Source: Mobula hypostoma (taxonomy: Eukaryota). Taken from it: DNA of 64,000 bases. A model generated the notes under the pieces. It was not told where the DNA came from. It did no database searches and saw only the letters and a program-made list of their open reading frames with translations. The stretch's first letter is position 1. Every line of letters begins with the position of its first letter. The position numbers were made by a program, and so were the translations under genes. This document shows, in pieces, positions 4,701 to 56,168 of the stretch. The stretch lies in NCBI RefSeq assembly GCF_963921235.1, contig NC_086097.1:2046001-2110000 (forward strand), given 5' to 3'.

Positions 4701-5485
4701 GATTGCAGGACACAGCTTCAGTTCAGTACAGAGATGAGTAATTTGCGGAGTGGTGAGCTGATGTTCAGTGCAAAGATGAGTGAACCTCATGGAGGAGAGA
4801 GTTGAACTGGCCTGTCCCTCCCCTCCAGCCCGACAATCTGACCTTTTCTCTCCAAGGTCAACTCCAGTCAAGTCAAGTCTGGCTGTGGTGATACATCCGG
4901 ACCAGAGGGGTATTGCACCAGCAAAAAGGCTTTGTCCTACTCTGGGGGGGGTGGGAGCGGACACTTCCTTGAACCAGGAGAAGGACTTTGACAGAATATT
5001 GCACAAGTCATGAAGGACGTGCTGTCTGGGAAATAAGTGGATCTGGCAAGCTACAGTTCCACACATCTATAATTCATTAGAACACAGTCTGCACACTCGC
5101 GTCTGCTGAATGGTGCACAAGCAGAATTTTAATTGGACATGTATAACAATCATTTTTTTATAAATTCAGCAACTTCTTTCATGAAAGGTATCTTGAAACT
5201 CATCAATTTTCTTGATATTGATAACTTGGGCTAATAATAAATGCATATTAATCCATATTAAAACAGACGATATGGAATCAGGGCAGTTTCCGGAAACATT
5301 TTTGATACCCCTTTCATTTCTATTTTCTGCTGTCAACATTCATCAAAAATTTACAGCACGGCTATTTCTATTTCCCGAGCTTGGTGATGAACAGTGTGTT
5401 TCTCTGGTTGAGTTGCACACTCTGTTCTTATGCTTCTGATATTTTATTGACACTCTCCGTACTTTTCTCTAGGATAGATTTTCCA

Positions 5486-6610
5486 GCTGGCTTGGCCAAA
5501 CAAGGGGCTTGGACCTGGTGGGAAAGTGTTGAACAACGACATCTATCTTGGAATGTTCTGTGGCAGATGGAACCGCTCCGCGTTTCTTTTCTATGCAGAG
5601 CAGCGTACGACCTGCTCCCAACACCTGCCAACCTCAGCACCTGGTATGAAGATAAGACGGACAGGTGTGCTGCTTGTGGTGAGAAGGGAACACTTCAACA
5701 TATCTTGAGTGTATGCAGAGTCAATCTTTCCAGCGGCATGTACACGTGGAGACATAACAACGTTCTTAAAGTTATAACAGAAGCAGTTGAGCAGAGAGTA
5801 CTGCAGCACAACTTATCTCATGCCCCATGCTGCTCAGAACATCGCATATCATTTGTGAAAGAAGCCTCCAAGTCAAGGGTGTACAGCACAGGCTCACGAT
5901 CAAGCATACTTTCTTCAGCCAATGATTGGTGTGTCAAGGCTGACCTGGACGGGAAAGGCAGTTTCCGGAGCAAATAGCTTTCACAACATTGCATCCAGAT
6001 ATAATCGTATGGTCTGACACCAGTAGAGAAGTGGTTATTGGTGAACTCACAGTCCCCTGGGAAGACAACATCGATGAAGCCCATGAGCGCAAGTTAACCA
6101 AATATGCAGAGTTAAGATCAGAGTGCAAAGACAGAGGGTGGAAGGTCTCATGCTATCCATTCGATGTGGGCTGCCGTGGGTTTATTGCGTTCACTCTCCA
6201 GAAGTGGCTGCGTGACCTTGTCTTCACTAGAAGGGAGATCAAGTCAACCAGCAGGGCTGTAGCTGAGGCAGCAGAGAAAGGATCAGCATGGGTGTGGACC
6301 AAGTATGTCCAGAGGGGCAGATAGTCAGACAGTGTATACATGTCTTGCAAACCCTTCAGTAGTTGCATAGACACCTGAAGAGCAGACTATCTGTTGGATG
6401 GAAGCGACCAACAACTCTGATAGAGGCTGATGCCAAGTTTTTAAGCTCACCAGTGGGAGGAGGTGCTTTAGCACTGCTGGCCCACCACCTCGAGGGAGTC
6501 TTGATCATAAGCGGGCCGAAACTCCTGAAGACAGGTGGCAGATCAACTGATGATCCCACTGGTGATAGCACAGGACAGTTAACATCTTAGTCCATGTGTA
6601 TTTTGTAACT
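5486..6610 (+). mobile_element. HERO-clade (R2 group, restriction-like endonuclease) non-LTR retrotransposon, 5'-truncated
   Basis: QGAWTWWE, YDLLPTPANL, CCHC knuckle CAAC..HILSVC, YTWRHNNVL. After a frameshift near 5970, RLE motifs PDIIVWS..ELTVPWE..KYAEL..GCRGF. Stop at 6324, then about 280 nt of 3' UTR. Confidence 0.88.
6485..6560 (+). ncRNA. Putative rearranged (non-circularly permuted) hammerhead ribozyme
   Basis: GUC 6498-6500, GAAA 6518-6521, CUGAUGA 6547-6553. Stem I UUGAUC 6501-6506/GAUCAA 6541-6546; stem III GGAGU 6495-6499/ACUCC 6521-6525; stem II AGcGGG 6510-6515/CCCaCU 6555-6560; extra helix CCACCU 6485-6490/AGGUGG 6533-6538. Confidence 0.72.
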
Positions 6611-6909
6611 CCACCTCAACACCAGCACTTTGTCGGAAGAAGTTCCGAAGGCCATAGGTTTAAACCAGCAGACATACCTTCCACTGTGCTGCCTGCTACC
6701 ACTGCCTCAGCAGAGGCAGCACAAAATTCTCCGGACTTCCCCAGCTTTCAGGATGCAAAAAATAAAAAGCCAATCTGGTGCTGGCAGTACATGGTGACGT
6801 TTTACAGGAAGCTCACAAAAGTTTTAGATGTACTTTTTCTGAACTACTTTCACTGGAACTTGCATCTTTTAATTTCCCTTTAAGGAACATACTTATGAAC
6901 TGTCTAAAC

Positions 6910-9430
6910 CAGTGTTTCCCAACCTTTTTCAGCTGAACGTTCCCTAAAGCATTTTCATACCTGCCAATGCCTCCCTAAAGCACCTTCATACTTGTCAACA
7001 CCCCCTTAGGCACAATATACTTTCCAGTGCCCCCATAGTGTAAAAATGTGTTTACCATATGCTAACATGAGAAAAATGATTCTGCTTTAAATTTTTAATT
7101 GTCCTTAAACTCAGCATACACAGTACCTGTGTGCTGTACAGCAGCTTCAATATCAATGTGATCCTTGAACTTAATGCTTTTCTCAAGAGTTGAAATATCT
7201 GGTTCAATTTGTGACAGCAAAAGCCTTAAGTCCCCACACGAAACAACGTCCAAGTGGTTTCTGTTTTTTTGTGAGTGTGTGGTTCACTGCATTGAAGCCT
7301 CTTTCAACAAGGTAGAAGGATAGAAATGCAATGAAGAACAGTTTGGCTCTTCTCCAAAGACCAGGAAACTTCATATGACAGTCCAGCCACATACCACAAA
7401 AACATTTTTGCTCCTTCATCATTCTAAATTTCGATCATTTCTTCTTGCAAGTTCTCTTCCTGTTCTTCCACCTTGCAAAGAAATAGGTTAATTATCTAGT
7501 CTGGAATTTCCAGACCTTTCAAATCCTTGAATCAATTCTGAAAATTCTTCTTCAGTGACTACTGGCGTAAGCAGTACTTTTGCAAATCACTGTCTGTGAA
7601 AGAGAGTGTCATACTTCCCATGCAAGGAAAGAGTGAGAATATTCTTCTTCTAATCTAATGTTTTGCATAAATATTTCCAATATTCTGATAAAAGAGGACA
7701 TTGTACTTTTGCCTGAATTAAATTGAAATTCTCACCCTGCAGTTTCCTATTTAGAATGTTCAATTTGTCATACAGATCGGCTAGGGATGCCACATCTGCA
7801 TGTAGCTGTTCAATCCTCTTTACCGAGTTCTTGTCGACTTTGAACAAAAGTTCAACCACAGTGTCAAAAAGATCAAAGAAACATTTTAAGCAGCAGTCCT
7901 ATGACAGCCAACACACTTCATTGTGAAGAAGCAAGTGTTCAAACTCTTCATCCTGATCTTGGAATTTCTTATATCATAAGTGCCACTAAACCAGCATGGC
8001 GGCCTGTCATATATGGTGCTCCATCTGTTGTACAAGAAATTATGTTCCTAATCAGAGTACTTCTATCCTCAATATATATTTTGAGTTTGTTGCGGATTGC
8101 TTCTCCGTTGGTAATTGTTCATGGTTTTTAACTTTTTATAAAAGAGAACCTCTTCATAAAGTTTTCCATTTTTGATAAACCATACACATGTCAATAGCAA
8201 TGCATCATTGTCTTGCACAGTTGTCTCATCCAGTTGTATTCCAAGTTCTGTTTTTTGTAGCTCTGTGTATAGTTGATACTCAATGTTTTTACTCACTTTG
8301 TCAATACAACGAGCTAGAGTGAGTACACACAGGAGTTGATTTTAAAGTACAGGTATCCATTTTGAGAACAGTGGTGATCACTTCTGATACAGCAGGCATT
8401 ATTAATCTTTCACCAGCTGTGTGAGATTTTCCACACTTGCTATTATTTTGGAAATGTTCTAAGAAGCAATGAGACCACTATCAAGGCCAATTTTAGCTTT
8501 CTTGGCAAATGATTTGAGTGTGTAATGCTTTCCAAATGCTTCTGTCATCTTCTGGAACTCAGTAATACCATAAGTAGCCTTTTCAGGGTGTCTTTTACAG
8601 AAGTGTCCCTGCAGTCTTGATGGTTTCATGGCTTCATTAGACACGTCTCATGACAAATCAGACACCCGTGGCGTCGCTGATCTGACAGGAACAGAATAAA
8701 ACCATCGAATCGTTCGGACAGAGATGGCACTCAGTACTCGGTGTCAGACAGTCGATCAGAGCTCAGAGTTTTCAGATGACTCGGAGTCGGACTGTGGTTG
8801 GGTATGGCAGGGAGAGTTTTTCTTCCTTCTCCCGTCTGCGTGAGATGTGGGACATTTGAGAAACTTTGAACTTTACTGGGCTCATGGACTTCTTCATCAA
8901 GTTATGGTATTGTTGCACTATTGTAACTATATGTTATAATTATGTGGTTTTGTCAGTTTTTTCAGTCTTGGTCTGTCCTGTGTTTTGTGATATCACACCG
9001 GAGGAAATAATGTATCATTTCTTAATGCATGCATTACTAAATGACAATAAAAGAGGACTACATGTCTTCATAATCTTAAAACCACACTCCAGGTATGTAA
9101 CATTGTATTGATGCACTTTCTGCAGTTTCTGTTTCTAAGCAGGATTAGAATTCAAGGCTTCACCACCTTCAGACTCATAGAGTCTGCACTGTACATATTC
9201 ATCCGTCATTACAGTAACAGGGCTAAATTAAAATAAAAAAAATTAACACAAACTGGGAATGCCTATCAGAAGTTGATGATGGCAGTGAGTTGATATGGTC
9301 AGTCAGGTCTCATGCCTCAGGTTAGGGTAACACTTACCACCTCTCCACAGGAATCTCAAATGACCCCAATGGCTTCTATTTCCCCCATCACCCCCTTAGG
9401 TCATGTCACCGCTCCCTTTGAAAATCACTG
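6910..9430 (-). mobile_element. hAT (Charlie/Buster-type) DNA transposon with degraded transposase
   Basis: Ends cagtgtttcccaa (6910) and tttgaaaatcactg (9430); 8-bp TSD gtctaaac 6902-6909 / gtctacac 9431-9438. Minus-strand fragments SNEAMKPSRL..H..HP (BED finger), IQLDETT, TDGAP, LADLYDKLNILNRKLQG. Confidence 0.88.
8705..9076 (+). mobile_element. Retroposed non-coding 3'-end insertion inside the hAT transposase
   Basis: Flanked by direct repeat taaaacca (8697-8704, 9077-9084); aataaa near the 3' end; the BED-finger region continues across the site. Confidence 0.7.
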
Positions 9431-10072: not shown

Positions 10073-13000
10073 ACAGGATTACTGCCTGTGCCACGCGACA
10101 GTGAGAGGAGGAATGCGATGAGGTGGAGGATAAATGCGTGGCTGAGGGATTGGAGCAGGGGGCAGGGATTCAAGTTTTTGGATCATTGGGACCTCTTTTG
10201 GCGCAGGTGTGACCTGTACAAAAAGGACGGGTTACACTTGAATCCTAGGGGGACCAATATCCTGGCGGGGAGATTTGCGAGGGCTACTGAGGTGACTTTA
10301 AACTAGAATGGTTGGGGGGTGGGAATCAAATTAAAGAGACGAGGAGAGAGGAGGTTAGTTCACAACAGGGGGATGGGAGCAAGTGCAGAGAGACAGAGGG
10401 CTGTAAAATGAGGGAAGAAACAAAAAGTAGTAAGGTGAAAAGTAAAAGTGGCAGGCCGGCAAATCCAGGGCAAAAATCAAAAAGGGCCACTTTTCAACAT
10501 AATTGTATAAGGGCTAAGAGTATTGTAAAAGCAAGCCTGAAGGCTTTGTGTGTCAATGCAAGGAGCATTCGTAACAAGGTGGATGAATTAAAAGTGCAGA
10601 TTGTTATTAATGAATATGATATAGTTGGGATCACAGAGACATGGCTCCGGGGTGACCAAGGATGGGAGCTCAACATTCAGGGATATTCAATATTCAGGAG
10701 GGATAGACATGAAAAAAAAGGAGGTGGGTAGCATTGCTGGTTAGAGAGGAGATTAACGCAATAGAAAGGAAGGACAATAGCCAGGAGGATGTGGAATTGA
10801 TATGGGTAGAGCTGCATAACACTAAGGGGCAGAAAACGCAGGTGGGATTTGTGTACAGGCTACCTAACAGTAGTAGTGAGGTTGGGGATGGTATTAAACA
10901 GGAAATTAGAAATGTGTGCAATAAAGGAACAGCAGTTATAATGGGTGACTTCAATCTACATATAGATTGGGTGAACCAAATTGGTAAGGGTGCTGAGGAA
11001 GAGGATTTCTTGGAATGTATGCGGGATGGCTTTTTGAACCAACATGTCGAGGAACCAACTAGAGGGCAGGCTGTTCTGGACTGGGTTTTGAGCAATGAGG
11101 AAGGGTTAATTAGCAATCTTGTCGTGAGAGGCCCTTTGGGTAAGTGTGACCATAATATGGTGGAATTCTTCATTAAGATGGAGAGTGACATAGTTAATTC
11201 AGAAACAAAGGTTCTGAACTTAAAGAAGGGTAACTTTGAAGGTACGAGATGTGAATTGTCTAAGATAGACTGGCAAATGACACTTAAAGGGTTGACGGTG
11301 GATATGCAATGGCAAGCGTTTAAAGAGCGCATGAATGAACGACAACAATCGTTCATCCCAGTTTGGCAAAAGAATAAATCAAGGAAGGTAGTGCACCCGT
11401 GGCTGACAAGAGAAATTAGGGATAGTATCAATTCCAAAGAAGAAGTATACAAATTAGCCAGAAAAAGTGGCTCACCTGAGGACTGGGAGAAATTCAGAGT
11501 CCAGCAGAGGAGGACAAAGGGCGTAATTAGGAAAGGGAAAAAAGATTATGAGAGAAAACTGGCAGGGAACATAAAAACTGACTGTAAAAGCTTTTACAGA
11601 TATGTGAAAAGAAAAATATTGGTTAAGACAAATGTAGGTCCCCTACAGACAGAAACAGGTGAATTGATTATGGGGAGCAAGGACATGGCAGACCAATTGA
11701 ATAACTATTTTGGTTCTGTCTTCACGAAGGAGGACATAAATAATCTTCCGGAAATAGTAGGGGATCGAGGGGCTAGTGAGATGGAGGAACTGAGGGAAAT
11801 ACATGTTAGTAGGGAAGTGGTGTTAGGTAAATTGAAGGGATTAAAGGCAGATAAATCCCCAGGGCCAGATGGTCTGCATCCCAGAGTGCTTAAGGAAGAA
11901 GCCCAAGAAATAGTGGATGCATTCGTGATAATTTTTCAAAACTCTTTAGATTCTGGACTAGTTCCTGAGGATTGGAGGGTGGCTAATGTAACCCCACTTT
12001 TTAAAAAAGGAGGGAGAGAGAAACCGGGGAATTATAGACCGGTTAGCCTAACATCGGTGGTAGGGAAAATGCTAGAGTCAGTTATCAAAGATGTGATAAC
12101 AGCACATTTGGAAAGCGGTGAAATTATCGGACAAAGTCAGCATGGATTTGTGAAAGGAAAATCATGTCTGACAAATCTCACAGAATTTTTTGAGGATGTA
12201 ACTAGTAGAGTGGATGGGGAGAACCAGTGGATGTGGTATATTTGGATTTTCAAAAGGCTTTTGACAAGGTCCCACACAGGAGATTAGTGTGCAAACTTAA
12301 AGCACACGGTATTGGGGGTAAGATATTGATGTGGATAGAGAATTGGTTAGCAGACAGGAAGCAAAGAGTGGGAATAAACGGGACCTTTTCAGAATGACAG
12401 GCAGTGACCAGTGGGGTACCGCAAGGCTCAGTGCTGGGACCCCAGTTGTTTACAATATATATTAATGACTTAGATGAGGGAATTAAATGCAGCATCTCCA
12501 AGTTTGCGGATGACATGAAGCTGGGCGGCAGCGTTAGCTGTGAGGAGGATGCTAAGAGGATGCAGGGTGACTTGGATAGGTTAGGTGAGTGGGCAAATTC
12601 ATGGCAGATGCAATTTAATGTGGATAAATGTGACGTTATCCACTTTGGTGCCAAAAACAGGAAAACAGATTATTATCTGAATGGTGGCTGATTAGGAAAA
12701 GGGGAGGTGAAACAAGACCTGGGTGTCATTATACACCAGTCATTGAAAGTGGGCATGCAGGTACAGCAGGCGGTGAAAAAGGCGAATGGTATGCTGGCAT
12801 TCATAGCAAGAGGATTCGAGTACAGGAGCAGGGAGGTACTACTGCAGTTGTACAAGGCCTTGGTGAGACCACACCTGGAGTATTGTGTGCAGTTTTGGTC
12901 CCCTAACCTGAGGAAAGACATCCTTGCCATAGAAGGACTACAAAGAAGGTTCACCAGATTGATTCCTGGGATGGCAGGACTTTCATATGATGAAAGACTG

Positions 13001-13433
13001 GATCGACTAGGCTTATACTCCTTGGAATTTAGAAGATTGAGGGGGGATCTGATTGAAACGTATAAAATCCTAAAGGGATTGGACAGGCTAGATGCAGGAA
13101 GATTGTTCCCGATGTTGGGGAAGTCCAGAATGAGGGGTCACAGTTTGAGTATAAAGGGGAAGCCTTTTCGGACCGAGGTGAGGAAAAGCTTCTTCACACA
13201 GAGAGTGGTGAATCTGTGGAATTCTCTGCCACAGGAAACAGTTGAGGCCAGTTCATTGGCTATATTTAAGAGGGAGTTAGATATGGCCCTTGTGGCTACG
13301 GGGATCAGGGGGTATGGAGGGAAGGCTGGGGCGGTGTTCTGAGTTGGATGATCAGCCATGATCATAATAAATGGCGGTGCAGGCTCGAAGGGCAGAATGG
13401 CCTACTCCTGCACCTATTTTCTATGTTTCTATG
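10073..13433 (+). mobile_element. CR1 LINE, young copy B (ORF1 3' end plus disrupted ORF2)
   Basis: Esterase C-terminus DGLHLNPRG; APE motifs NARSIRNK, ITETW, GDFN; RT FADD; frameshift near 12215; TGA 12689-12691; (tttctatg)n tail; TSD-like tgacagga/tgtcagga. Confidence 0.97.
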
Positions 13434-13847
13434 TCAGGAAGAGCAGGCAGATGACAGAACAAAACTGCAGCCAGCAGGGTGCGTATCAATGCATTAGAGA
13501 TGTAGAGTCAAAAAGGGTAACAAATACAGTATCAAAGTGTTATATCTCAATGCTGGGGTATAAGAAATCAGGTGGACAATCTTGTTGCACTTTTACAGAT
13601 TGTTGGGTTTGATATTGTGGCCATCACTGAATCATGGCTGAGGGATGGTTGTAGTTGGGAGTTAAATGTCCAAGGTTACATGTTGTATCGGAGGGACAGG
13701 AAGGTGGGCAGAGGGGGTGGCGTGTCTCTGCTGATAAAGAATGGCATCAAATCAGTAGAAAGATGTGACATAGGATCAGAAGATGTTGAATCCTTGTGGG
13801 TTGAGTTAAGAAACTGCAAGGGTAAAAGGACCCTGATGGCAGTAATA

Positions 13848-16543
13848 TAGAAACATAGAAAATAGGTGCAGGAGTAGGCCATTTGGCCCTTCGAGCCTGC
13901 ACCGCCATTTATTATGATCATGGCTGATCATCCAACTCAGAACCCCGCCCCAGCCTTCCCTCCATACCCCCTGATCCCCGTAGCCACAAGGGCCATATCT
14001 AACTCCCTCTTAAATATAGCCAATGAACTGGCCTCAACAGTTTGCTGTGGCAGAGAATTCCACAGATTCACCACTCTCTGTGTGAAGAAGTTTTTCCTAA
14101 TCTCGGTCCTAAAAGGCTTCCCCTCTATCCTCAAACTGTGACCCCTCGTTCTGGACTTCCCCAAAATCGGGAACAATCTTCCTGCATCTAGCCTGTCCAA
14201 TCCCTTTAGGATCTTATACGTTTCAATCAGATCCCCCTTCAATCTTCTAAATTCCAATGAGACAAGCCCAGTTCATCCAGTCTTTCTTCATATGAAAGTC
14301 CTGCCATCCCAGGAATCAATCTGGTGAACCTTCTTTGTACTCCCTCTATGGCAAAGATGTCTTTCCTCAGATTAGGGGATCAAAACTGCACACAATACTC
14401 TAGGTGTGGTCTCACCAAGGCCTTGTACAACTGCAGTAGTACCTCCCTGCTCCTGTACTCGAATCCTCTCGCTATAAATGCCAGCATACCATTCGCCTTT
14501 TTCACCACCTGCTGTACCTGCATGCCCACTTTCAATGACTGGTGTATAATGACACCCAGGTCTCGTTGCACCTCCCCTTTTCCTAATCAGCCACCATTCA
14601 GATAATAATCTGTTTTCCTATTTTTGCCACCAAAGTGGATAACTTCACATTTATCCACATTAAATTGCATCTGCCATGAGTTTGCCCACTCACCCAACCT
14701 ATCCAAGTCACCCTGCATCCTCTTAGCATCCTCCTCACTGCTAACACTGCCACCCAGCTTCGTGTCATCCGCAAACTTGGAGATGCTGCATTTAATTCCC
14801 TCATCCAAGTCATTAATATATATTGTAAACAATTGGGGTCCCAGCACTGAGCCTTGCGGTACCCCACTAGTCACCGCCTGCCATTCTGAAAAGGTCCCGT
14901 TTATTCCCACTCTTTGCTTCCTGTCTGCTAACCAATTCTCCACCCACACCAATACCTTACCCCCAATACCGTGTGCTTTAAGTTTGCACACTAATCTCCT
15001 GTGTGGGACCTTGTCAAAAGCCTTTTGAAAATCCAAATATACCACATCCACTGGTTCTCCCCTATCCACTCTACTAGTTACATCCTCAAAAAATTCTATG
15101 AGATTCGTCAGACATGATTTTCCTTTCACAAATCCATGCTGACTTTGTCCGATCATTTCTCCGCTTTCCAAATGTGCTGTTATCACATCCTTGATAACTG
15201 ACTCCAGCAGTTTCCCCACCACCGACGTTAGGCTAGCCGGTCTATAATTCCCCGGTTTCTCTCTCCTTCCTTTTTTAAAAATTGGGGTTACATTAGCCAC
15301 CCTCCAATCCTCAGGAACTAGTCCAGAATCTAACGAGTTTTGAAAAATTATCACTAATGCATCCATTATTTCTTGGGCTACTTCCTTAAGCACTCTAGGA
15401 TGCAGACCATCTGGCCCTGGGGATTTATCTGCCTTCAATCCCTTCAATTTACCTAACACCACTTCCCTACTAACATGTATTTCACTCAGTTCCTCCATCT
15501 CACTGGACCCTCTGTCCCTTACTATTTCTGGAAGATTATTTATGTCCTCCTTAGTGAAGACAGAACCAAAGTAATTATTCAATTGGTCTGCCATGTCCTT
15601 GCTCCCCATAATCAATTCACCTGTTTCTGTCTGCAGGGGACCTACATTTGTCTTTACCAGTCTTTTCCTTTTTACATATCTATAAAAGCTTTTACAGTCC
15701 GTTTTTATGTTCTCTGCCAGTTTTCTCTCATAATCTTTTTTCCCCTTCCTAATTAAGCCCTTTGTCCTCCTCTGCTGAACTCTGAATTTCTCCCAGTCCT
15801 CAGGTGAGCCACTTTCTCTGGCTAATTTGTATGCTACTTCTTTGGAATTGATACTATCCCTAATTTCTCTTGTCAGCCACGGGTGCACTACCTTCCTTGA
15901 TTTATTCTTTTGCCAAACTGGGATGAACAATTGTTGTAGTTCATCCATGCAACCTATAAATGCTTGCCATTGCATATCCACCGTCAATCCTTTAAGTGTC
16001 ATTTGCCAGTCTATCTTAGCTAATTCACGTCTCATACCTTCAAAGTTACCCCTCTTTAAGTTCAGAACCTTTGTTTCTGAATTAACTATGTCACTCTCCA
16101 TCTTAATGAAGAATTCCACCATATTATGGTCACTCTTACCCAAGGGGCCTCTCACGACAAGATCGCTAATTAACCCTTCCTCATTGCTCAAAACCCAGTC
16201 CAGAATAGCCTGCTCTCTAGTTGGTTCCTCGACATGTTGGTTCAAAAAACCATCCCGCATACATTCCAAGAAATCCTCTTCCTCAGCACCTTTACCAACT
16301 TGGTTCACCCAGTCTACATGTAGATTGAAGTCACCCATTATAACTGCTGTTCCTTTATTGCACACATTTCTAATTTCCTGTTTAATACCATCTCCGACCT
16401 CACTACTACTGTTAGGTGGCCTGTACACAACTCCCACTAGCGTCTTCTGCCCCTTAGTGTTACACAGCTCTACCCATATCGATTCCACATCTTCCCGGCT
16501 TATGTCCTTCCTTTCTATTGCGTTAATCTCTTCTTTAACCAGC
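13848..16543 (-). mobile_element. CR1 LINE, young copy C
   Basis: 656-aa ORF 14587-16557 with APE C-half (GDFN, SDH) and a complete RT core (FADD); tail at 13848-13865. Confidence 0.97.
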
Positions 16544-34231: not shown

Positions 34232-37200
34232 CAGGGGGATGGGAACAAGTGCAGAGAGACAGAGGGGTGTAAAATGAGGGTAGAAGCAAAAAGTAGTAAG
34301 ATGAAAAGTAAAAGTGGCAGGCCGACAAATCCAGGGCAAAAATCAAAAAGGGCCACTTTTCAACATAATTGTATAAGGGCTAAGAGTGTTGTAAAAGCGA
34401 GCCTGAAGGCTTTGTGTGTCAATGCAAGGAGCATTCGTAACAAGGTGGATGAATTGAATGTGCAGATAGTTATTAATCAATATGATATAGTTGGGATCAC
34501 AGAGACATGGCTCCAGGGTGACCAAGGATGGGAGCTCAACATTCAGGGATATTCAATATTCAGGAGGGATAGACATGAAAGAAAAGGAGGTGGGGTGGTG
34601 TTGCTGGTTAAAGAGGAGATTAACACAATAGAAAGGAAGGACATTAGCCGGGAGGATGTGGAATCGATATGAGTAGAGCTGCATAACACTAAGGGGCAGA
34701 AAACGCTGGTGGGAGTTGTGTACAGGCCACCTAACAATAGTAGTGAGGTTGGAGATGGTATTAAACAGGAAATTAGAAATGTGTGCAATAAAGGGACAGC
34801 AGTTATAATGGGTGACTTCAATCTACATATAGATTAGGTGAACCAAATTGGTAAGGGTGCTGAGGAAGAGGATTTCTTGGAATGTATGCGGGATGGTTTT
34901 TTGAACCAACATGTTGAGGAACCAACTAGAGAGCAGGTTATCCTAGACTGGGTATTGAGGAGGGGTTAGTTAGCAATCTTGTCGTGCGAGGCCCCTTGGG
35001 TAAGAGTGACCATAATATGGTGGAATTTTTCATTAAGATGGAAAGTGACATAGTTAACTCAGAAACAAAGGTTCTGAACTTAAAGAAGGATAACTTTGAA
35101 GGTATGAGACGCGAATTAGCTAAGATAGACTGGCAAATGATATTTAAAGAGTTGATGGTGGATATGAAATGGCAAGCATTTAAAGATCACATGGATGAAC
35201 TACAGCGATTGTTCATCCCAGTTTGGCAAAAGAATAAACCAGGGAAGGTAGTGCACCCGTGGCTGACAAGGGAAATTAGGGATAGTATCAATTCCAAAGA
35301 AGAAACATACAAATTAGCCAGAAAAAGTGGCACACCTGAGGACTGGGAGAAATTCAGAGTCCAGCAGAGGAGGACAAAGGGCTTAATTAGGAAAGGGAAA
35401 AAAGATTATGAGAGAAAGCTGGCAGGGAACATAAGAACTGACTGTAAAAGCTTTTATAGATGTGTGAAAAGAAAAAGATTGGTTAAGACAAATGTAGGTC
35501 CCTTACAGTCAGAAACAGGTGAATTGATCATGGGGAACAAGGACATGGCAGACCAATTGAATAACTACTTTGGTTCTATCTTCACTAAGGAGGACATAAA
35601 TAATTTTCTGGAAATAGTAGGGGACCGAGGGTCTAGAGAGATGGAGGAACTGAGTGAAATACATGTTAGTAGGGAAGTGGTGTTAGGTAAATTGAAGGGA
35701 TTAAAGGCAGATAAATTCCCAGGGCCAGATGGTCTGCATCCCAGAGTGCTTAAGGAAGTAGCCCAAGAAATAGTGGATGCACTAGTGATAATTTTTCAAA
35801 ACTCTTTAGATTCTGGATTAGTTCCTGAGGATTGGAGGGTGGCTAATGTAACATCACTTTTTAAACGAGGAGGGAGAGAGAAACCGGGGAATTATAGACT
35901 GGTTATCCTGACATCGGTGGTGGGGAAAATGCTAGAGTCAGTTATCAAAGATGTGATAACAGCACATTTGGAAAGTGGTGAAATCATCGGACAAAGTCAG
36001 CATGGATTTGTGAAAGGAAAATCATGTCTGACGAATCTCATAGAATTTTTTGAGGATGTAACTAGTAGAGTGGATAGGGGAGAACCAGTGGATGTGGTAT
36101 ATTTGGATTTTCAAAAGGCTTTTGACAAGGTCCCACACAGGAGATTAGTGTGCAAACTTAAAGCACACGGTATGGGGGTATGGTATTGATGTGGATAGAG
36201 AATTGGTTGGCAGACAGGAAGCAAAGTGTGGGAATAAACGGGACCTTTTCAGAATGGCAGGAAGTGACTAGTGGGGTACCACAAGGCTCAGTGCTGGGAC
36301 CCCAGTTGTTTACAATATATATTATTAATGACTTAGACGAGGGAATTAAATGCACCATCTCCAAGTTTGCGGATGACACGAAGCTGGGCGGCAGTGTTCG
36401 CTGTGAGGAGGATGCTAAGAGGATGCAGGGTGACTTGGATAGGTTAGGTGAGTGGGCAAATTTATGGCAGATGCAATTTAATGTGGATAAATGTGAGGTT
36501 ATCCACTTTGGTGGCAAAAACAGGAAAACAGATTATTATCTGAATGGTGGCCAATTAGGAAAAGGGGAGGTGCAACGAGACCTGGGTGTCATTATACACC
36601 AGTCATTGAAAGTGGGCATGCAGGTACAGCAGGCGGTGAAAAAGGCGAATGGTATGCTGGCATTTATAGCGAGAGGATTTGAGTACCGGAGCAGGGAGGT
36701 ACTACTGCAGTTGTACAAGGCCTTGGTGAGACCACACCTGGAGTATTGTGTGCAGTTTTGGTCCCCTAATCTGAGGAAAGACATTCTTGCCATAGAGGGA
36801 TACAAAGAAGTTTCACCAGATTGATTCCTTGGATGGCAGGACTTCCATATGATTAAAGACTGGATCGATTAGGCTTATACTCTCTGGAATTTAGAAGATT
36901 GAGAGGGGATCTTATTGAAACATATAAAATTCTGAAGGGATTGGACAGGCTAGATGCAGGAAGATTGTTCCCAATGTTGGGGAAGTCCAGAACGAGGGGT
37001 CCCAGTTTGAGGATAAAGGGGAACCTTTTAGGACCGAGATGAGGAAAAACTTCTTCACGCAGAGAGTGGTGAATCTGTGGAATTCTCTGCCACATGAAAC
37101 AGTTGAGGCCAGTTTATTGGCTATATTTAAGAGGGAGTTAGATTTGGCCCTTGTGGCTAAAGGGATCGGGGGTAGGGAGAGAAGGCAGGTACAGGGTTCT

Positions 37201-37302
37201 GAGTTGGATGGTCAGCCATGATCATACTGAATGGCTGTGCAGGATCGAAGGGCCGAATGGCCTACTCCTGCACTTATTTTCTATGTTTCTATGTTTCTAT
37301 GT
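34232..37302 (+). mobile_element. CR1 LINE, young copy D (ORF2, disrupted)
   Basis: APE and RT (FADD) across ORFs 34274, 34984 and 36180; (tttctatg)3 tail. Confidence 0.97.
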
Positions 37303-52964: not shown

Positions 52965-55900
52965 ATTTCCGGAGTTAGGAGATAAACTAAAAAGTAGGAC
53001 CACAAAGGTAATAATCTCTGGATTACTACCAGTGCCATGTGCTGGTCAGAGTAGAAATAGGAGGACATGTCAGATGAATACGTGGCTTGAAAATGGTGCA
53101 AGGGGGAGGGATTCAAATTTCTGGGGCATTGGAACCAGTCCTGGAGGAGATGGGACTAGTACAAACAGGACAGTCTGCACCTGGGCTGGACTGGAACCAA
53201 TGTCCTAGGGGGAGCGTTTGCTAATGTTGTTCAGGAGGATTTAAACTAATGTGGCAGGGGGATGGGAACAAGTGCATAGAGACAGAGGGGTGTAAAATAA
53301 GGGTAGAAGCAAAAAAGTAGTAAGGTGAAAAGTAAAAGTGGCAGGCCGGCAAATCCAGGGCAAAAATCAAAAAGGGCCACTTTTCAATACAATTGTATAA
53401 GGGCTAAGAGTGTTGTAAAAGCAAGCCTGAAGGCTTTGTGTGTCAATGCAAGGAGCATTCGTAACAAGGTGGATGAATTAAAAGTGCAGATAGTTATTAA
53501 TGAATATGATATAGTTGGGATCACAGAGACATGGCTCCAGGGTGACCAAGGATGGGAGCTCAACATTCAGGGATATTCAATATTCAGGAGGGATAGACAT
53601 GAAGGAAGGGGAGGTGGGGTGGCGTTGCTGGTTAGAGAGGAGATTAACACAATAGAAAGGAAGGACATTAGCCGAGAGGATGTGGAATCAATATGGGTAG
53701 AGCTGCATAACACTAAGGGGCAGAAAACGCTGGTGGGAGTTGTGTACAGGCCACCTAACAGTAGTAGTGAGGTTGGGGATGGTATTAAACAGGAAATTAG
53801 AAATGCGTGCAATAAAGGAACAGCAGTTATAATGGGTGACTTCAATCTACATATAGATTGGGTAAACCAAATTGGTAAGGGGGCTGAGGAAGAAGATTTC
53901 TTGGACTATATGCAGGATGGTTTTCTGAACCAACATGTCGAAGAACCAACTAGAGAGCAGGCCATTCTAGACTGGGTATTGAGCAATGAGGAAGGGTTAG
54001 TTAGCAATCTTGTCGTGAGAGTGACCATAATATGGTGGAATTCTTCATTAAGATGGAGAGTGACATAGTTAATTCAGAAACAAAGGTTCTGAACTTAGAG
54101 GGGTAACTTTGAAGGTATGAGACGTGAATTAGCTGAGATAGACTGGCAAATGACACTTAAAGGGTTGACGGTGGATATGCAATGGCAAGCATTTAAAGAT
54201 CGCATGGATGAACTACAACAATTGTTCATCCCAGTTTGGCAAAAGAATAAATCAGGGAAGGTAGTGCACCCATGGCTGACAAGGGAAATTAGGGATAGTA
54301 TCAATTCCAAAGAAGAAACATACAAATTAGCCAGAAAAAGCGGCTCACCTGAGAATTGAGAGAAATTCAGAGTCCAGCAGAGGAGGACAAAGGGCTTAAT
54401 TAGGAAAGGGAAAAAAGATTATGAGAGAAAGCTGGCAGGGAACATAAAAACGGACTGTAAAAGCTTTTATAGATATGTGAAAAGAAAAAAATTGGTTAAG
54501 ACAAATGTAGGTCCCTTACAGTCAGAAACAGGTGAATTAATCATAGGGACCAAGGACATGGCAGACCAATTGAATAACTACTTTGATTCTGCCTTCACTA
54601 AGGAGGACATAAATAATCTTCCAGAAATAGTAGGGGACCGAGGGGCTAGTGAGATGGAGGAACTGAGGGAAATGCATGTTAGTAGGGAAGTGTTGTTAGG
54701 TAACTTGAAGGGATTAAAGGCAGATAAATCCCTAGGGCCAGATGGTCTGCATCCCAGAGTACTTAAGGAAGTAGCCCAAGAAATAGTGGATGCATTAGTG
54801 ATGATTTTTCAAACTCTTTAGATTCTGGATTAGTTCCTGAGGATTGGAGGGTGGCTAATGTAACCCCGCTTTTTAAAAAAGGAGGGAGAGAGAAACCAGG
54901 GAATTATAGACCGGTTAGCCTAACATCGGTGGTGGGGAAACTGCTGGAGTCAGTTATCTGACTCTATGTGATAACAGCACATTTGGAAAGCGGTGAAATC
55001 ATCGGACAAAGTCAGCATGGATTTGTGAAATGAAAATCATGTCTGACGAATCTCATAGAATTTTTTGAGGATGTAACTAGTAGAGTGGATAGGGGAGAAC
55101 CAGTTGATGTGGTATATTTGGATTTTCAAAAGGCTTTTGACAAGGTCCCACACAGGAGATTAGTGTGCAAACTTAAAGCACACGATATTGGGGATAAGGT
55201 ATTGATGTGGATAGAGAATTGGTTAGCAGACGGGAAGCAAAGAGTGGGAATAAATGGGACCTTTTCAGAATGGCAGGCAGTGACTAGTGGGGTACCGCAA
55301 GGCTCAATGCTGGGACCCCAGTTGTTTACAATATATATTAATGACTTGGATGAGGGAATTAAATGCAGCATCTCCAAGTTTGCAGATGTCACGAAGCTGG
55401 GCGGCAGTGTTAGCTGTGAGGAGGATGCTAAGAGGATGCAGGGTGACTTGGATAGGTTGGGTGAGTGGGCAAATTCATGGCAGATGCAATTTAATGTGGA
55501 TAAATGTGAGGTTATCCACTTTGTGGTGGCAAAAACAGGAAAACAGATTATTATCTGAATGGTGGCCGATTAGGAAAAGGGGAGGTACAACGAGACCTGG
55601 GTGTCATTATATACCAGTCATTGAAAGTGGGCACGCAGGTACAGCAGGCGGTGAAAAAGGCGAATGGTATGCTGGCATTCATAGCAAGAGGATTCGAGTA
55701 TAGGAGCGGGGAGGTACTACTACTGTACAAGACCTTGGTGAGACCACACCTGGAGTATTGTGTGCAGTTTTGGTCCCCTAATCTGAGGAAAGACATCCTT
55801 GCCATAGAGGGAGTACAAAGAAGGTTCACCAGATTGATTCCTGGGATGGCAGGACTTTCATATGATGAAAGACTGGATCAACTAGGCTTGTACTCGTTGG

Positions 55901-56168
55901 AATTTAGAAGATTGAGGGGGGATCTGATTGAAACGTATAAGATCCTAAAGGGATTGGACAGGCTAGATGCAGGAAGATTGTTCCCGATGTTGGGGAAGTC
56001 CAGAATGAGGGGTCACAGTTTCAGGATAAAGGGGAAGACTTTTAGGACCGAGACGAGGAAAAACTTCTTCACACAGAGAGTGGTGAATCTGTGGAATTCT
56101 CTGCCACAGGAAACAGTTGAGGCCAGTTCATTGGCTATATTTAAGAGGGAGTTAGATGTGGTCCTTGT
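52965..56168 (+). mobile_element. CR1 LINE, young copy E (ORF1 end plus disrupted ORF2, 3' tail missing)
   Basis: Same ORF2 as copies A-D; FADV; ends at gtggtccttgt without a tail. Confidence 0.95.

Follow-up and report, generated by a model that had tools for sequence, protein, structure and literature searches.

The closest described relatives of the RNA domain reported here are the type-SGC hammerhead ribozymes (the HRIMA-1 motif and its variants), which are naturally occurring hammerheads with a non-circularly permuted strand order (Eckert et al., 2023; PMC10085705). According to the accessible text of that paper, these RNAs cleave in vitro at the expected bond and their four stems have been validated with compensatory mutants; stem II follows stem I after a linker of about 3 nucleotides (nt), and on their other sides the two stems are connected by a fourth helix. 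The same text counts 407 + 176 = 583 examples, taken from soil, spruce and sludge metatranscriptomes and found beside hairpin ribozymes, and it assumes that the three conserved sequence blocks are uninterruptible, the gap between A9 and G10.1 never exceeding 1–2 nt in its alignments. Here we describe a variant of these recently discovered non-circular hammerheads in a new host and context, namely in a 64,000-nt stretch of genomic DNA from Mobula hypostoma (NCBI RefSeq assembly GCF_963921235.1, contig NC_086097.1, positions 2,046,001 to 2,110,000 of the forward strand; hereafter the window, numbered from its first letter). The domain occupies positions 6447–6565 of the + strand, downstream of the open reading frame (ORF) of a long interspersed nuclear element (LINE) that encodes a restriction-like endonuclease (RLE). 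Its fold, conservation, strand, position and tandem arrangement are documented below, and its activity is predicted by analogy; we consider it probable that the segment is a hammerhead ribozyme in a new wiring, carried in the short 3′ untranslated region (UTR) of a widespread clade of RLE-type LINEs.

Six helices (P1, P2, stems I, II and III, plus a helix designated Hb) give the domain a closed RNA fold (Table 1). Its blocks run in the order cleavage site (S), GAAA (G), CUGAUGA (C), and because the chain is broken between A9 and G10.1, the 10.x strand of stem II comes to lie 5′ of the cleavage-site block; this arrangement, S-G-C with 10.x ahead of S, is not a circular permutation of types I–III. 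Within the window copy, stem I forms six of its six pairs (6501–6506/6541–6546), stem III forms five (A6521–U6499 and four more) plus G6494–U6526, and Hb forms six of six (6485–6490/6533–6538). The 20 nt between positions 6458 and 6479 are all taken by the P2 hairpin, with zero spare bases, and P1, P2, stem II and the core meet in a four-way junction with P2 set flush against P1. At their far ends, stems I and II are connected through Hb, by way of a kink-turn-like internal loop, with the far end of stem III. This loop may be a genuine kink-turn; in a 57-row alignment of relatives (alignment A6, see below), its GA columns hold G in 47 and A in 38 rows on the 5′ side and G in 46 and A in 45 rows on the 3′ side, and one class of relatives has a bulge of 5–7 nt in place of the GA/GA loop.

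Table 1. Features of the domain and its host element, in window coordinates. MFE, minimum free energy.
Feature	Position	Strand	Partner	Basis or remark
LINE ORF remnant, last ~280 residues (CCHC zinc knuckle and PD-(D/E)xK restriction-like endonuclease, RLE)	5468..6324	+		
P1 5′ strand, closing helix	6447..6458	+	6554–6565	perfect 12-bp inverted repeat; in MFE fold
P2 hairpin (stem of 8 bp, UUUA loop), flush with both P1 and stem II	6459..6478	+		
Stem II 5′ strand (10.1–10.5)	6479..6483	+	6513–6517	covariation; in MFE fold
Helix Hb 5′ strand	6485..6490	+	6533–6538	covariation
Internal loop Hb/stem III, 5′ side (C-GA)	6491..6493	+		resembles non-bulged kink-turn strand
Stem III strand 16.6–16.1	6494..6499	+	6521–6526	covariation
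Cleavage-site strand GGAGTC/TTGATC	6495–6506	+		direct reading of window
C17, predicted cleavage 6500/6501	6500	+		position in core only
Stem I strand 1.1–1.6	6501..6506	+	6541–6546	covariation
Linker joining stems I and II at their far ends	6507..6512	+		0–7 nt in relatives
AGCGGGCC-GAAA-CTCC strand	6510–6525	+		direct reading of window
Stem II 3′ strand (11.5–11.1)	6513..6517	+	6479–6483	covariation
G12 A13 A14 A15.1 (GAAA)	6518..6521	+		core conservation
Stem III strand 15.1–15.6	6521..6526	+	6494–6499	covariation
Internal loop 3′ side (three bases, GA, one base)	6527..6532	+		resembles bulged kink-turn strand
Helix Hb 3′ strand	6533..6538	+	6485–6490	covariation
GATCAA-CTGATGA-TCCCACT strand	6541–6560	+		direct reading of window
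Stem I strand 2.6–2.1	6541..6546	+	6501–6506	covariation
C3 U4 G5 A6 U7 G8 A9 (CUGAUGA)	6547..6553	+		core conservation
P1 3′ strand, starts directly after A9	6554..6565	+	6447–6458	
3′ terminal piece, predicted small hairpin (6568–6576/6590–6599) and short tail	6566..6611	+		contig ends; MFE fold

This architecture shares with the type-SGC ribozymes, as the accessible text describes them, the block order, the core, the short linker between stems I and II and the two pseudoknots; their fourth helix corresponds to Hb, an equation made from the wording of the paper. In the published class, 10.x directly follows CUGAnGA, whereas here A9 leads into P1 and the CUGAnGA block is split, and the four-way junction and the tie of Hb to the end of stem III are likewise particular to our domain. 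The published RNAs are also known from RNA contigs, whereas those described here lie in genomic DNA, in the 3′ UTRs of LINEs. In effect, the domain is a type-SGC hammerhead whose 3′ and 5′ ends have been joined and which has been re-opened inside the CUGANGA block: we read the join as linking strand 6485–6490 to strand 16.x via the short internal loop, and the opening as the break at A9/G10.1.

A preliminary description of this site, made from the letters of the window, had recognized a hammerhead-type core in the non-circular order NUH, GAAA, CUGAUGA, and the core strings do lie where it put them and recur in relatives. It placed the core 3′ of the stop codon of an RLE-type LINE, in agreement with tblastn and the list of ORFs, and it expected a pseudoknotted RNA that would escape standard models, as the silence of Rfam in the window and in 20 related loci bears out. 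It had also described rearranged hammerheads as reported but rare, which is right by the accessible text of Eckert et al., 2023 (PMC10085705). The fold that it drew was a plain S-G-C hammerhead with 6510–6515/6555–6560 as stem II, a pairing that forms at five of six positions in the window copy, with U6554 unpaired. Across 36 families, however, these positions make a mean of 2.6 of 6 pairs, at a chance level of about 2.25, and reach at least five pairs in only two; moreover, the same bases are used by the 12-bp P1 and adjoin the covarying stem II, and we regard the fold as first drawn as highly improbable. Covariation, which the preliminary description had proposed as a check, upheld stems I and III and the extra helix (Hb). 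The conserved stem II (6479–6483/6513–6517) supplies a canonical G10.1–C11.1 pair, so that an earlier caveat about a non-canonical base of stem II falls away, and since the strand after CUGAUGA pairs with 6447–6458, the topology is not plain S-G-C.

Short core strings can assemble by accident, and we weighed the reading of the site as a motif match arising by chance within an ordinary structured UTR. A three-strand hammerhead scan of both strands of the window (stems I and III of at least 5 bp, any block order) returned this site as its single match. Simulated background, from the same scan of 400 first-order Markov windows of 64 kb, gave 0.1475 matches per window for stems of at least 5/5 bp, 0.0125 for at least 6/6, the stringency that applies here, and 0.0075 when a 3-bp stem II was required as well. 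Taken alone, the core match thus stands at about p=0.01 per window, and hundreds would be expected in a Gb-sized genome. The z-scores of MFE folds are also modest (−1.85 and −2.40), such folding being by itself weak evidence and blind to pseudoknots. What sets the site above chance is that the same domain recurs in relatives: the arrangement, with covarying stems, is present in 52 of the 60 distant loci having at least 250 nt 3′ of the RLE match, always on the coding strand, which contradicts an accidental match and leaves it a negligible likelihood.

Relatives were gathered by scanning metagenome contigs with an alignment of 8 RLE sequences, an alignment of 30 homologues being too diverse. 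In all, 184 metagenome stretches encode RLE relatives, and 80 were kept as loci, their proteins being 38–74% identical to that of the window. When the 3′ UTR of the window was compared with these loci by blastn, the sole matching part was query 148–229 (6472–6553), which lies just 3′ of the loci's ORFs; its identity is 70–73% in 11 loci whose protein is about 40% identical and 83.6% in L075, and it is better conserved in the matching loci than the adjoining proteins. A relaxed scan (CTGANGA, stems I and III of at least 4 bp) over 235,136 bases and both strands yielded 42 matches in S-G-C order on the ORF strand, against 8 in all other combinations of order and strand together. These 42 fall into 29 groups at below 88% likeness, and their stem sequences differ yet stay complementary.

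To describe the family, we used two covariance models. The first contained only the nested helices Hb and stem III, and gave 57 matches of full length at E≤1e-3, along with partial ones where contigs end; all lie on the + strand. In the resulting alignment, stem I and stem II, both outside the model, are 86.0% and 86.7% paired, with six of six and four of five pairs changed on both sides, respectively, and Hb is 94.7% paired; the entire structure is 88.8% paired, versus 34.5–44.3% with partners slid, and its covariation score of 0.590 (0.065–0.133 when slid) was reached by none of 500 shuffles. In the second model, P1 (7 bp) and P2 (8 bp) were included as well; it was built from 28 of the 39 sequences with a P1 of at least 7 bp, rows with a mislocated P1 being left out. 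It again gave 57 matches, all on the + strand, with 91.3% of cells paired versus 33–45% when slid, a score of 0.682 versus 0.07–0.12, and compensatory changes at 36 of the 38 pairs. Stem I, still outside the model, rose to 92.9% paired with compensatory changes at all six pairs, and Hb to 96.2%, also at six of six; stem II, likewise in neither model, was upheld again; in both alignments, the pairs of stem III covary except U16.1–A15.1. P1 shows compensatory changes at 7/7 pairs and P2 at 8/8 (91.1% paired), counts that lean towards the model because both helices were included in it.

Whole-domain alignments made with MAFFT (A3, A7) misplace P1 and P2, and we therefore used the model-based alignments (A6, A9) together with alignment-free counts for these helices. 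An uninterrupted run of 8 or more pairs adjoins A9 in 18 of 36 families, compared with 9 of 140 decoy anchors, and the observed length of P1 was reached by at most 1% of shuffles in 16 of the 36. Flush P2 hairpins in the relatives measure 7–11 bp. G-U cells (125) outnumber A-C cells (37), indicating that the pairing is that of + strand RNA, not of DNA. In one relative (L016:551–658), P1, P2, the stem II 5′ strand, Hb and CUGAGGA are kept, and the entire stem III hairpin, with the cleavage site and GAAA, is swapped for unrelated sequence. The window also holds further long-range inverted repeats at 6354–6364/6520–6530 and 6451–6463/6692–6704, the latter probably due to chance because it reaches past the end of the element.

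Conservation within the core follows a pattern that, judged from these sequences, is the signature of a hammerhead. Over 37 families, the GAAA block has G12 in 36 and A13, A14 and A15.1 in 37 each, and the CUGANGA block has C3 in 36, U4 in 37, G5, A6 and G8 in 36 each, and A9 in 37, counts that lean to conservation because the first model was seeded from sequences with an exact core (the exact-core scan was the first source of 43 of the 57 rows, and 14 came from outside it). N7 is free (U in 24 families, C in 9, A in 2 and G in 2), and position 17 reads C in 15 families, U and A in 10 each, and G in 2. Of the three rows in 57 that read G17, L005 and L006 are misaligned, their family reading A in the exact-core scan, and L011 is misaligned or decayed. 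The U16.1–A15.1 pair is UA in 52 rows of the second alignment and something else in 2, with zero covariation, and G10.1–C11.1 is GC in 45 rows and GU in 4 in the first alignment (46 and 3 in the second). The domain therefore has in common with the classical types I–III all core nucleotides, the three helices, the A15.1–U16.1 and G10.1–C11.1 pairs, a free N7 and a position 17 that is not G; it differs from them in its non-circular order, its pseudoknot, the break at A9/G10.1 and the lack of any Rfam match. The Rfam hammerhead families are those classical types. No match to them was found in the window or in the 20 loci (90,839 bases); the entire 64-kb window returned nothing from Rfam at the gathering score, and positions 6000–7200 returned no ribozyme at E up to 10. 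Five weak Rfam matches in 6000–7200 belong to unrelated families, far under threshold, and were set aside.

The main rival to catalysis as the reason for this conservation is that the fold serves as a recognition or assembly site for the reverse transcriptase (RT) in target-primed reverse transcription, with a shape derived from a hammerhead and poor or no cleavage in vivo. R2 proteins bind a small pseudoknotted element of the 3′ UTR to start reverse transcription, by the accessible text of PMC12222951, and the R2 elements treated there (the R2Tg pseudoknot and R2Bm) resemble our domain as small, conserved, pseudoknotted RNAs at the 3′ end of R2-superfamily elements, although they lack a ribozyme core and the likeness is one of description only. 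Such a role would suit a domain that, together with a terminal piece of 25–45 nt, makes up nearly the entire 3′ UTR; it would also suit the presence in new copies of sequence past the predicted cut, and the A9/G10.1 split could weaken catalysis. Yet the constraint just described is a catalytic pattern, with N7 free, 17 not G, A15.1–U16.1 invariant and G12, G8, G5 and C3 fixed, and type-SGC ribozymes of the same block order cleave well (PMC10085705, in its accessible text). In addition, contigs of the window's own repeat family that join it only from 6522 onward (at least 14 in set X1 and at least 12 in X5) hint that the tail spreads without the whole fold. A binding site fits the same data and is compatible with catalysis; as a replacement for it, we rate this explanation as rather unlikely.

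Several points besides the seeding bias weigh against the assignment of the domain as an active ribozyme. The break at A9/G10.1 falls at the site that is never interrupted by more than 1–2 nt in the published alignments, as far as the accessible text of that paper extends. The tie of Hb to the end of stem III imposes a geometric constraint that type-SGC ribozymes do not have, and a rough back-of-envelope geometry gives an uneasy fit to the canonical coaxial stack of stems II and III. Self-cleavage after C6500 is predicted by analogy, from position in the core only. Most of the 14 rows outside the exact-core scan have core substitutions or a weakened stem I and look like decayed copies, so that not every copy can be active, and 8 of the 60 loci do not carry an intact domain, which is absent from L010, L020, L027, L040, L043, L045 and L049 and broken in L021. 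Finally, sequence past the predicted cut is present in every copy, and a fast, irreversible ribozyme would be self-defeating.

A pseudoknot could be avoided altogether if the hammerhead formed between two RNAs, with a kissing dimer of P2 loops bringing stems I and II together in trans and removing the knot. The P2 apex carries a perfect palindrome of 6 nt or more in 20 of 39 families, as against 7.8 on average and 15 at most with shuffled apexes (1000 shuffles), and the palindrome is kept through sequence changes: UGAUCA occurs in eight families, and UGUACA, UCAUGA, UGGCCA and others are also seen. Examples of P2 apical loops are L034:2663–2776, L026:3203–3315 and L050:3038–3147. Cis and trans pairs are indistinguishable by covariation, and small hammerheads of Penelope-like elements reportedly cleave as dimers, an observation said to come from Lunse et al. 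in 2017. Against this, the UUUA loop of the window's own family holds no palindrome, nor do the loops of 19 of the 39 families; part of the palindrome signal may come from stem bases counted in the apex; and the kink-turn-like loop resembles a means of folding the chain back in cis. The type-SGC ribozymes, too, fold and cleave in cis, according to the accessible text of PMC10085705. We therefore hold a dimeric ribozyme to be unlikely and favor the pseudoknotted hammerhead folded in cis.

The host of the domain is, from its sequence, an RLE-type LINE. Its ORF remnant is truncated at the 5′ end and runs in two frames, with a frameshift near 5947–5965 and a stop codon at 6322–6324, and residues 794–1074 of a 1079-residue relative align to 5468–6306 (tblastn, seven long relatives). 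The RLE piece has 3618 homologues at E≤1e-3 in the protein library, those with names being fish proteins labelled R2DM-like or uncharacterized. A zf-RVT match in the window copy falls under the cut-off. The long relatives carry RVT_1 upstream, and the truncated window copy has no RT domain of its own; the RT at 1043–2842 belongs to a different LINE, one of APE type, which recurs four times in the window. HERO is one of five RLE clades, and the layout of knuckle plus RLE is common to all of them (PMC4640811, in its accessible text), leaving HERO as a candidate label only. From the stop codon of the window copy to P1, the gap is 127 nt, and no second copy of 5000–7000 was found elsewhere in the 64-kb window.

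The surrounding sequence is dense with elements of the kind that lacks long terminal repeats (non-LTR elements). Copies of the other LINE, detected through RVT_1, lie at 1042–2940, 11543–13434, 13841–15736 (− strand), 35403–37300 and 54416–56168, with 94–97% identity; the APE-type endonuclease domain occurs in the copy at 10713–12287, and more diverged copies occur elsewhere in the window.

The window's own repeat family was followed in contigs assembled from four public runs, from four organisms, at a likeness to the window of at least 80%, with variants and ends taken from among the rows listed. The element stretch is a very abundant repeat, its summed word depth, which is not a copy number, being about 1e5 in two runs, as against 6–9 for the unique flank where that is covered. 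None of the variants among the rows listed falls within 6462–6561, versus 20 variant places within 6180–6461. Among the rows listed, ends do not accumulate at 6500/6501 either, a signal that assembled contigs would not reveal in any case. Outside that segment, C6450>T and G6562>A, which are partners in P1, occur at matching shares (49% and 47% in set X10; 4% and 4% in X13), and A6461 is private to the window copy, nearly all contigs having T, which makes a U-G pair in P2.

Copies of the element end at 6604 or at 6610–6611: at least 63, 69, 65 and 38 contigs depart behind 6604 in the four runs, at least 56 and 54 depart behind 6611 and at least 10 behind 6610, and depth falls past 6605. The contigs leaving at 6604 continue with a shared short motif, and this end class is probably a variant of the tail, not flank. 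The terminal hairpin at 6568–6576/6590–6599 comes from the MFE fold only, with z of −0.23. A separate group of contigs, those that share sequence only from 6522 onward, do so after a different, mutually similar sequence, and summed depth is about 4-fold higher at 6534–6557 than at 6486–6509; these contigs may represent a second repeat family, perhaps akin to a short interspersed nuclear element (SINE), that borrows the last ~85 nt, or else a common truncation or deletion form.

In many of the relatives, the stop codon lies at or inside the P1 5′ strand; the distance from the stop to the 7-bp core of P1 is 20.5 nt at the median and −49 at the lowest, with −12 in the L050 family, L041, L042 and L077. 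Copies of one family are alike for only 25–33 nt past P1 and then diverge, which places the ribozyme entirely within the unit that is transposed, some 100 nt short of its end; the shared piece consists of a small hairpin and a tail of about 10 nt, with no poly(A). In 9 of the 28 loci having at least 900 nt past the domain, the N-terminal part of a next copy follows on the same strand, its first residue extrapolating to 171–343 nt after the ribozyme. The head-to-tail neighbors in L038 are 67% identical over 2.6 kb, indicating a genuine pair, from different families, rather than a loop in the assembly. Between families, the leader of the downstream copy is conserved (L038:3560–3700, L041:2830–2960, L050:3180–3300, L053:1570–1700 and others); in it, a small hairpin with a GAAAGAC-like loop is repeated three or four times, without an Rfam match. 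In the loci that do not carry the domain, two further layouts were seen: in L010 and L020, the 3′ region instead repeats a GGGATTAA-like word several times, and the lineage of L045 and L049, of the same protein family, passes from a short 3′ UTR into the GAAAGAC-repeat leader of the next copy.

Catalysis, the site of cleavage and the biological role can be proposed by analogy with known hammerheads. The RNA would cut itself between C6500 and U6501, generating a 2′,3′-cyclic phosphate and a 5′-OH, and, with the site block in first place, the downstream (3′) product would retain almost the entire ribozyme, as with the HDV-like ribozymes found at the 5′ ends of R2. Given that the elements are often arranged head to tail, the most likely role would be the cutting of read-through transcripts of such arrays at unit boundaries; a separation of tandem or read-through transcripts had been suggested for this site before, and gains support from the 9 of 28 relatives that are followed by another copy. 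Within an array, a short tail and a leader would separate the cutting site from the ORF that follows, and the cut in the upstream unit would remove the tail that every new copy contains. As the 100–110 nt beyond the site are copied into insertions, cleavage of template RNAs would have to be avoided, delayed or reversed, or the products held together and re-joined, and the presence of sequence past the cut in every copy implies that template RNAs are intact when copied. Cleavage would leave about 35 bp (P1, stems I–III and Hb) between the two products, and the overlap of P1 with the stop codon may offer a ribosome-dependent switch. A 5′ truncation at the cut site was looked for in the loci and not found; L021 breaks 7 nt after the predicted cut.

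A further possibility, which we consider doubtful, is that the element behaves like a retrozyme, in that cleavage would yield unit-length RNAs whose ends are ribozyme halves, and these would be re-joined on the fold into a closed template that gives rise to tandem copies. Re-joining would be carried out by the reverse reaction of the hammerhead or by a cellular ligase, reverse transcription of the closed template would regenerate an intact 3′ UTR, and, as P1 overlaps the stop codon, the ribosome would set translation against folding. In the accessible texts on Penelope-like elements and retrozymes (Cervera & de la Pena 2014, 2016, 2020), hammerheads likewise sit on retroelements that are often in tandem, and their cutting gives unit-length RNA. 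Those hammerheads are of type I or III and belong to RLE-less or non-autonomous elements, whereas here a rearranged hammerhead resides in an autonomous RLE-type LINE.

Ribozymes resembling that of hepatitis delta virus (HDV) reportedly occupy the 5′ ends of R2 and other non-LTR elements, as Eickbush & Eickbush in 2010 and Ruminski et al. in 2011 are said to have described. These have in common with our domain an RLE-type LINE as host, a cut at the 5′ edge of the fold (predicted in our case) and the processing of co-transcripts; they differ in class and in place, lying in the 5′ UTR, whereas the present domain lies in the 3′ UTR after the stop codon. No HDV-like or other known ribozyme was found with Rfam in the 20 loci, including the 5′ regions of downstream copies. 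In literature outside subscription journals, we found no report of a hammerhead in the 3′ UTR of an RLE or HERO LINE, and a paper of November 2026 links ribozymes to retroelements, in its accessible text, through HDV-like, hammerhead and twister ribozymes by way of known cases only.

The first description of ribozymes in non-circularly permuted form dates from 2023 and covered soil-metatranscriptome RNA only. Descriptor and Rfam searches miss the class reported here, for which two covariance-model seeds and 57 examples now exist. The arrangement also raises a puzzle, in that a self-cutting site would be kept 100 nt inside a template that needs to be copied whole. If our reading is true, non-circular hammerheads would extend to eukaryotic genomic DNA, as a standard part of a widespread retrotransposon family that reaches very high copy numbers in several host species, and the hammerhead core would tolerate a break at A9/G10.1 bridged by a four-way junction, a break that the published block model excludes. 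RLE-type LINEs would thereby gain a second class of ribozyme, at the opposite end of the element from the HDV-like ones.

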